Source: Cyanophyceae cyanobacterium (GTDB taxonomy: Bacteria > Cyanobacteriota > Cyanobacteriia > Cyanobacteriales > JBHJGN01). Taken from it: DNA of 21,340 nucleotides. The notes under the pieces are model-generated. The model searched no databases, was not told the DNA's origin, and was given only the letters and a program-made list of their open reading frames with translations. Where the stretch lies: assembly GCA_050331735.1 (NCBI GenBank), contig JBHJGN010000089.1:1-21340 (forward strand). The letters run 5' to 3'. Each line of letters begins with the position of its first letter. Positions within the stretch are counted from its first letter, which is position 1. Positions 1 to 21,340 of this stretch are shown in pieces. The position numbers and the translations under genes are program-made.

Positions 1-57
1 TTCTATCGCCAAGCATTGCTTAGCTTTGCCGGATATTTTCATCTCTAGCACCAACAT
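1..57 (-). CDS. tnpB: 5' end (19 codons, truncated by window edge) of a probable IS200/IS605-family RNA-guided endonuclease TnpB
   Basis: The minus strand from ATG at 57 reads MLVLEMKISGKAKQCLAIE and stays open to position 1. This resembles the N-terminus of cyanobacterial TnpB (MLVLEYKxxGKxxQYxAIDEAIRT-like, from memory). SD-like AAGGGAG lies 6 nt upstream, and the ORF starts 110 bp inside an IS605-type left end. Confidence 0.75.
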   Translation of the reverse strand, partial: MLVLEMKISGKAKQCLAIE

Positions 58-167
58 AGACTTCTCCCTTAACAGCATAAGCCTCTGCAAGCTGACTCAC
101 GGCGCCTCAAGCCGCAATCGTATTCATCCAACGGCTAAAGCACGTTGGCTTTCTACTTCACAGCTCG
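1..167 (-). mobile_element. Left end of an IS200/IS605-family insertion sequence (IS1341-like, tnpB-only layout), running off the window
   Basis: Minus strand: TTAC (171-168) | CGAGCTGTGAAGTAG (15 nt) | AAAG (152-149) | hairpin CCAACG-T-GCTTTAGC-CGTTGG (148-128). This has the same cleavage tetramer, guide tetramer and spacing as the IS608 left end. Confidence 0.8.
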
Positions 168-244
168 GTAAGGTTGGAGAGCGTTGTTAGTTGCGGTCAT
201 CCCTGAGTAGGATGTCAGAACTGGTGTAAGCAACCACAATTTTC

Positions 245-21133: not shown

Positions 21134-21216
21134 AACTCTTCTCCGTCTTTAAGTTTGTTTCTCAGAATCAATTTACCTTAAATCCCGATCGGTTCTTGGC
21201 TGAGAGGAGGGCAGGG

Positions 21217-21266
21217 AAAATTTTTTCGGATCAAGAGTTGACACCAAGAGAGGAAGTAGTTAAAGT
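21217..21266 (+). promoter_or_regulatory. Strong sigma70-type promoter with UP element, probably for an rRNA operon
   Basis: AAAATTTTTT (21217-21226), TTGACA (21238-21243), 17-nt spacer, TAAAGT (21261-21266). Confidence 0.75.
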
Positions 21267-21305
21267 AGTAAATGCGCGGTTGAGAGCACCTCAGCGACAG
21301 CGCCC

Positions 21306-21317
21306 GAACCTAGACAA
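21306..21317 (+). promoter_or_regulatory. BoxA-like antitermination motif of an rrn leader
   Basis: GAACCTAGACAA resembles cyanobacterial rrn boxA (GAACCTTGA(A/C)AA, from memory). It follows a GC-rich hairpin (GCGC-GGTTGAG...CTCAGCG-ACA-GCGC). Confidence 0.6.
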
Positions 21318-21340
21318 CCAAATCGTTTGAGAGCCAAAGC

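Follow-up and report, generated by a model that had tools for sequence, protein, structure and literature searches.

The first 171 bases of the window raise two questions: what kind of DNA stands upstream of a gene for a CBS-domain protein (PF00571), and why the contig begins where it does. The window is the whole stretch of DNA that was analyzed, 21,340 nucleotides long, and comprises positions 1-21340 of contig C89, with window base 1 at the contig start. The best explanation is that bases 1-167, read on the minus strand, are very probably the left end of an IS608-type IS200/IS605 insertion sequence that likely carries tnpB as its sole gene and would be moved in trans. The CBS-domain gene is located 112 nt downstream of this left end, i.e., the left end lies upstream of the gene.

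Layout of the left end

Closely related left ends occur on three further contigs of the same genome (C30, C9, and C3), which allows the parts of the end to be compared across four copies. The original prediction described, on the minus strand, TTAC, 15 nt, AAAG, a bulged hairpin, a Shine-Dalgarno sequence, and an ORF leaving the window, and this layout is correct to the base. The individual features, in the order in which the minus strand is read, are as follows.

168..171, minus strand: TTAC, the left cleavage/target tetranucleotide (CL); flanking DNA outside the element, homology break in four of four copies
153..167, minus strand: linker CGAGCTGTGAAGTAG, 15 nt, element positions +1 to +15, between the cleavage site and the guide
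149..152, minus strand: AAAG, the left guide tetranucleotide (GL), positions +16 to +19, at the 5' foot of the hairpin
128..148, minus strand: subterminal imperfect palindrome (IPL), CCAACGTGCTTTAGCCGTTGG = CCAACG(T)GC-TTTA-GC-CGTTGG, from its fold and a compensatory change in the C3 copy
126..127, minus strand: AT, the position of the IS608 base-triplet bases, directly 3' of the hairpin
58..127, minus strand: remaining left end and tnpB 5' leader (70-nt leader), 99% identity with C30 and C9
64..68, minus strand: Shine-Dalgarno sequence GGGAG, by sequence reading
1..57, minus strand: first 19 codons of tnpB, MLVLEMKISGKAKQCLAIE; ATG at 57-55, open to base 1 and stopped by the contig end

The span from the element boundary to the ATG (bases 58-167) measures 110 nt. 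In the alignment of the four copies, the linker at 153-167 is identical in C89, C30, and C9 and carries one change in C3, while the guide AAAG is constant in all four. Within the leader at 58-127, C30 and C9 each have one extra G relative to the window copy. A 19-codon fragment at a contig edge normally goes uncalled by ORF annotation.

The hairpin at 148-128 consists of 6 + 2 base pairs with T142 bulged and a TTTA loop. Upon DNA folding, it is the minimum-energy structure at -6.4 kcal/mol (z = -2.36), with 5 of 200 shuffled sequences being equally stable. Taken alone, this stability is modest; the left end is beyond chance because the same end recurs as a repeat and not because of the fold energy alone. 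A possible second left-end hairpin at approximately 115-101 pairs poorly in the window copy and was dropped as a part of the left end on that basis. Scanning bases 1-400 of the window for promoter and terminator consensus sequences returned 0 promoters (no sigma-70-like site) and 0 terminators.

Repeat copies and the boundaries of the element

C30 and C9 both begin with a 99%-identical copy of window bases 33-171, and C3 contains an internal, 89%-identical copy of bases 99-171. A four-way alignment places the onset of homology exactly at TTAC in every copy (C89, C30, C9, and C3) and shows unrelated flanks upstream; the original prediction had expected other copies to break homology at TTAC, and all four do. 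Among C89, C30, and C9, left-end identity is 99-100% across some 140 nt. In the C3 copy, a C-G pair of the upper stem is replaced by A-T, with both sides altered and the hairpin kept, as in a compensatory change. In this copy (C3:48813-49792, locus L004), the same left-end module is joined to a truncated and frameshifted tnpB from another lineage (MKTLKFKLYDNKRN...). Judging from the C3 copy, end modules seem to have been exchanged between tnpB cargos.

The position of the contig start follows from how the genome was assembled. Contig ends of this genome overlap mutually by 141 bases, which is the signature of a k=141 graph assembly. The start of C89 lies exactly 141 nt beyond a private SNP of this copy at position 142; the assembler therefore halted at the point from which this copy no longer differs from the others. 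No other contig of the genome overlaps the start of C89 to continue it leftwards, and a tblastn search of the 19 residues against the genome finds three left ends only, with the tnpB body absent from the assembly. Because the smallest contig in the genome is 2321 nt, a short interior repeat contig was probably dropped from the assembly. The right edge of the window is also a repeat boundary, with the last 141 nt (21200-21340) common to the start of C50. Outside this genome, a left-end pattern scan of public genome contigs gave 0 matches, and searches of public metagenome contigs with the ORF-start pattern and with a back-translated N-terminus pattern gave 0 matches each.

Both boundaries of the element can be read on a sister copy that spans contigs C30 and C39. 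On C30, the flank is an EamA-family ORF (PF00892, E 2e-13) directed into the element, with ...TVGL as its last residues at TTAC. On C39, positions 1-259 comprise a TnpB tail (THRCQCGCVLDRDENPARNIL...) followed by a right end, namely GAAT, a hairpin CCCACGT...ACGTGGG (C39:223-251), and ATTGTCAA, after which the flank begins. Aligned with three EamA homologues from three same-order genomes, the fragment on C30 ends at residue 229, 197, and 228, respectively, and the flank on C39 resumes at residue 230, 198, and 229. The gene is thus split between adjacent codons in three of three homologues, which indicates that C30 and C39 represent either side of a single insertion, made without loss or duplication of sequence. 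The junction codon CTT, formed by the final C of TTAC and the TT that follows TCAA, encodes Leu and agrees with LPIML in all three homologues.

These junctions support boundaries of the form TTAC / element ... TCAA / with no target duplication, as read on the sister copy C30/C39 rather than on the window's own copy. The reading frame alone also fits both boundaries shifted by 4 nt, and it is the Leu match together with the family chemistry that favors the boundaries given here. The element boundary at 167/168, as originally proposed, is supported by this copy, whose left (C30) and right (C39) junctions split the EamA gene precisely.

Several further observations concern the sister copy and its surroundings. 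The EamA gene split by the sister copy (C30:138-608, C39:260-540) is a decaying pseudogene: a 1-nt frameshift interrupts its 3' part near homologue residue 264, and stop codons precede the conserved region. At C39:100-145 (locus L034), a 46-nt near-perfect palindrome (CCGCCAGTTGTTTTCCGGAG...CTCCGGAAAACAACTGGCG) is inserted in the region of the tnpB tail and guide RNA, where it shifts the frame of the last ~17 tnpB codons and sits in an unpaired stretch of the 3' structure. Related palindromes are found at C79:22714-22760 and C8:1781-1813, and the insert looks like a small mobile palindrome. Two right-end junctions, one at C39:256-263 and a second one in sequencing run X1, both read TCAA and then TTCC before diverging; the common TTCC may reflect chance (1 in 256) or a preference that extends beyond the tetranucleotide. 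Two mutually identical contig starts, C45:1-141 and C70:1-141 (...GTATGTCAA), in which one frame reads ...PRQLSLFEW with a clamp-motif-like tail, were considered as partner right ends and rejected, being 85% identical to the 3' end of the IS605 element on C16 and hence of another family.

The repeat copies also bear on whether a mobile element is present at all. A hairpin that arose by chance or serves regulation of the CBS-domain gene from an upstream position, accompanied by a spurious short ORF, would be compatible with the moderate advantage of the hairpin over the shuffled sequences and with the lack of any relative showing an empty site: bases 1-171 of the window were searched in 60 relatives, the nearest of which are genomes of the same order, and none matched. 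However, the same 140 nt stand at two other contig ends with unrelated flanks, the first 74 nt lie inside C3, one copy interrupts an EamA gene precisely, and up to 15 of the 19 residues at the start of the ORF match TnpB N-termini. The repeat copies, the EamA split, and the common break at TTAC refute the non-mobile reading, the probability of which is negligible.

The tnpB gene, the right end, and the supply of transposase

That the ORF leaving the window is the start of a tnpB, as first proposed, is borne out by its likeness to TnpB N-termini. Its 19 residues are identical at 15 positions to a 391-aa TnpB in locus L046, which came from a locus search with the protein P0134, and at 14 positions to P0134 itself (MLVLEMKIYAKHKQCLAMD, 391 aa); three other TnpBs share 13 of 19. 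The near-invariant N-terminal columns of TnpB (M1, E5, K7, G10, K11, Q14, A17, and I18) are all kept in the window peptide. P0134 and the L046 protein are the nearest relatives, and both contain the PF01385 and PF07282 domains; P0134 additionally aligns to the ISDra2 TnpB structures with an E value of 1.4e-34.

Two other searches lead to TnpB as well. A pattern search for the guide and hairpin in 401 genomes of the order found 3 genomes besides the element's own. In one of these, at locus L029, a 97%-identical guide and hairpin (a 31-nt match) is followed by a 405-aa TnpB with PF01385 and PF07282, which starts MFVLEYKLRGKESQYRAID and whose clade shares 10-12 of 19 identities with the window peptide. 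Among the best 120 relatives of the L029 protein, 110 share at least 7 of the 19 starting positions with the window peptide. The independent query, a 53-aa frame of the C39 tail, retrieves TnpBs of 383-421 aa, the N-termini of which are the best matches to the window peptide. The C39 tail and the window head therefore point, in independent searches, to the same TnpB clade. The sole C-terminal piece in the element's own genome, a 35-residue C39 tail, scores 19.2 bits against PF07282, with the cut-off at 26.3. The evidence for the RuvC D-E-D triad and the Zn ribbon comes from domain matches in the relatives and from the C39 tail, the window covering the 19 N-terminal residues.

The element appears to contain tnpB and little else. 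In 11 of 11 relatives, the distance from the ATG to TCAA is 1225-1228 nt and is taken up by tnpB and a 51-nt tail, and the tnpB stop in the C39 tail likewise lies 51 nt before TCAA. The Y1 HUH transposase (TnpA) is not encoded in the left end. The original prediction held that no tnpA fits, and it was right in this: 110 nt precede the ATG, and all 11 relatives carry tnpB alone. The element is therefore a non-autonomous derivative.

An autonomous element, with a tnpA further inside, downstream of tnpB and in a part lost from the assembly, would gain from a greater length. If the 864-nt and 645-nt contigs of the run containing this DNA do not overlap, the element would measure ~1.69 kb or more vs the 1.34 kb expected, i.e., some 350 nt more than its relatives. 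Yet 350 nt is short for a tnpA of ~400-480 nt plus its signals (the genome's own frames encode 134-161 aa), and none of the genome's eight PF01797 matches lies at a contig end of this repeat. Together with the organization of the relatives and the matching tail of C39, this makes an autonomous element highly improbable.

The right end is structured. Across 12 sequences (C39 and the 11 relatives), the final 230 nt share a consensus structure with 53 base pairs, 18 of which show compensatory changes, that ends at TCAA. This conserved 3' structure fits a right-end guide RNA (omega RNA or reRNA). An Rfam search over 33,014 bases at E <= 0.01 gave 0 matches. On the opposite side of the element, 9 of 13 left ends of relatives passed a script filter for TTAC, 8-19 nt, AAAG, a hairpin, and ATGAA; four distinct stem sequences occur among these hairpins. 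L027, L054, L055, and L050 failed the filter; visual inspection reveals TTAC...AAAG in L054 and L050 and GTAC in L055.

The number of ends present was estimated from the single run that contains this DNA and is possibly its source. A contig over the 5' part of the element, which extends 723 nt past window base 1, has a depth of 207 vs 51 in the flank, and the C39-type right end has a depth of 84-98 vs 53; these contig depths are rough. They suggest ~4 left-end copies vs ~2 C39-type right ends, and the window copy may be truncated or incomplete. In the same run, a second right-end junction is seen whose 30-letter flank is absent from the genome bin.

The excess of left ends over right ends raises the possibility that the window copy is a dead 5' fragment that retains the left end and some of tnpB, lacks its own right end, and would neither move nor produce a guide RNA. 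A BLAST search of the genome with C39:1-400 detects no further right end, and on C3 this left end is fused to a tnpB of another lineage that is decayed and truncated. On the other hand, the near-identity of the C89, C30, and C9 left ends suggests recent copying, and the bin is incomplete for repeats, as illustrated by the second right-end junction that it lacks. A dead fragment is thus a possible but rather unlikely state of the window copy.

As a non-autonomous IS608-type element, the insertion would be mobilized in trans by a Y1 transposase encoded elsewhere. The genome contains eight PF01797 (Y1_Tnp) matches, of which four are apparently intact (on C16, C61, C55, and C38), two contain a stop, and two are partial. 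The four intact tnpA genes have left-end hairpins unlike that of the window element. The left hairpins nearest to it, CCCACG.GCTT(T/C)AGCCGTGGG, with one base pair different, accompany the tnpA genes of C37 and C15. Each of these has one in-frame stop (TAG in C37:74716-75069 and TGA in C15:47718-48071), with Y1 frames that are otherwise well conserved. None of the eight PF01797 matches in the genome is an intact tnpA with a hairpin matching that of the window element.

A variant of the tnpB-only reading envisages an element of ~4 near-identical copies that depends on a non-cognate TnpA for its movement, or on TnpB-guided homing as the main route of maintenance and copying, and that carries an extra unseen insert of ~350 nt or more compared with the 11 relatives. 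This variant is improbable.

The genome also harbors a second left-end family, found at C37:74653, C94:37267, C11:144037, C15:48135, C38:32396, and C43:1260, with the hairpin CCCACG.GCTT(T/C)AGCCGTGGG and with ATAG or ACAG as the guide; the stop-bearing tnpA genes of C37 and C15 belong to this family. It adjoins ATAC in six of six copies. For the copies with ATAG, the change from AAAG/TTAC to ATAG/ATAC matches the covariation expected from the A+17:T-4 pair and would constitute an internal control of the end code.

Proposed mechanism and comparison with known systems

By analogy with characterized members of the family, a TnpA dimer would bind both hairpins on the top strand, and the AAAG and GAAT guides would pair with TTAC and TCAA, respectively, to position cleavage. 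A single-stranded circle would then be excised and pasted 3' of another TTAC. Transcription of the last ~230 nt would yield the omega RNA or reRNA, with the DNA just past TCAA as the guide. TnpB and its reRNA would cut the empty donor joint (the TAM TTAC and the old flank), and recombination would restore the element. TTAC is, on sound grounds, the predicted TAM of this TnpB.

Reading bases 1-167 as a transposon left end explains why C89 starts at window base 1 and identifies the 167 nt upstream of the CBS-domain gene as transposon DNA and not a promoter. The element also offers a readable case in which the target TTAC, and with it the likely TAM of a compact, ~391-aa cyanobacterial TnpB, can be predicted from the guide/cleavage code of IS608; the ATAG/ATAC family in the same genome serves as a natural control. 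It is an ordinary member of the known IS200/IS605 kind and leaves knowledge of the family unchanged.

Published descriptions of IS608 from Helicobacter pylori (PMC3201880, PMC5934647) give TTAC as the cleavage motif and AAAG as GL; the A+16:T-3 and A+17:T-4 pairs engage in triplets with an A and a T immediately downstream of the hairpin. The right-end guide (GR) is GAAT, and the right cleavage motif (CR), TCAA, lies inside the IS. Measured against these descriptions, the window element likewise has CL TTAC outside the element, a cleavage site 19 nt from the hairpin foot, and a bulged subterminal hairpin followed by AT. The IS608 geometry that had been proposed for it is exact, with GL at +16 to +19 as in PMC5934647. 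The sister copy on C39 adds GR GAAT and CR TCAA inside the element, and the insertion occurs 3' of TTAC with no duplication. The traits of the IS608-type IS200/IS605 group found here are subterminal palindromes, insertion at a fixed tetranucleotide without duplication (in the sister copy), and the guide/cleavage pairing rule. On C39, the end of TCAA is 8 nt away from the foot of the right hairpin, compared with the 10 nt stated for IS608. Unlike IS608, the window element lacks a tnpA, has 110 nt before tnpB, and resides in a cyanobacterium. Its hairpins are presumably unrelated in sequence to those of IS608.

The ISDra2 TnpB of Deinococcus radiodurans (PDB 8BF8, 8EX9, 8EXA, and 8H1J) offers a structural reference, to which P0134 aligns over residues 17-370. 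In the relatives and C39, the conserved structure of the 3' terminus extends up to the cleavage site, as expected for a right-end reRNA. According to PMC8612924, the TAM of ISDra2 equals the transposon target motif, TTGAT, from which the TTAC predicted for the window element differs; at the protein level, identity to ISDra2 TnpB is presumably low.

The closest counterparts are the tnpB-only IS200/IS605 elements of cyanobacteria, annotated as the "RNA-guided endonuclease InsQ/TnpB family" and present, for example, in Lusitaniella coriacea, Pleurocapsa sp. PCC 7319, and several Pleurocapsales MAGs. Their N-terminus, MLVLEMKI..KQCLA, shares 13-15 of 19 residues with the window ORF, and their left ends similarly consist of TTAC, 8-19 nt, AAAG, a hairpin, and ATGAA. 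As in C39, their tail reads ...AWGDETAILA..., GTTTTGTC..GAACCAAGAAT-hairpin-(A/G)TGTCAA. In contrast, the left hairpin of the window is nearer to that of another TnpB clade, represented by L029. With the hairpin near the L029 clade and the ORF nearer to a different one, exchange of end modules and tnpB cargo is suggested for the window element when it is set beside these relatives.
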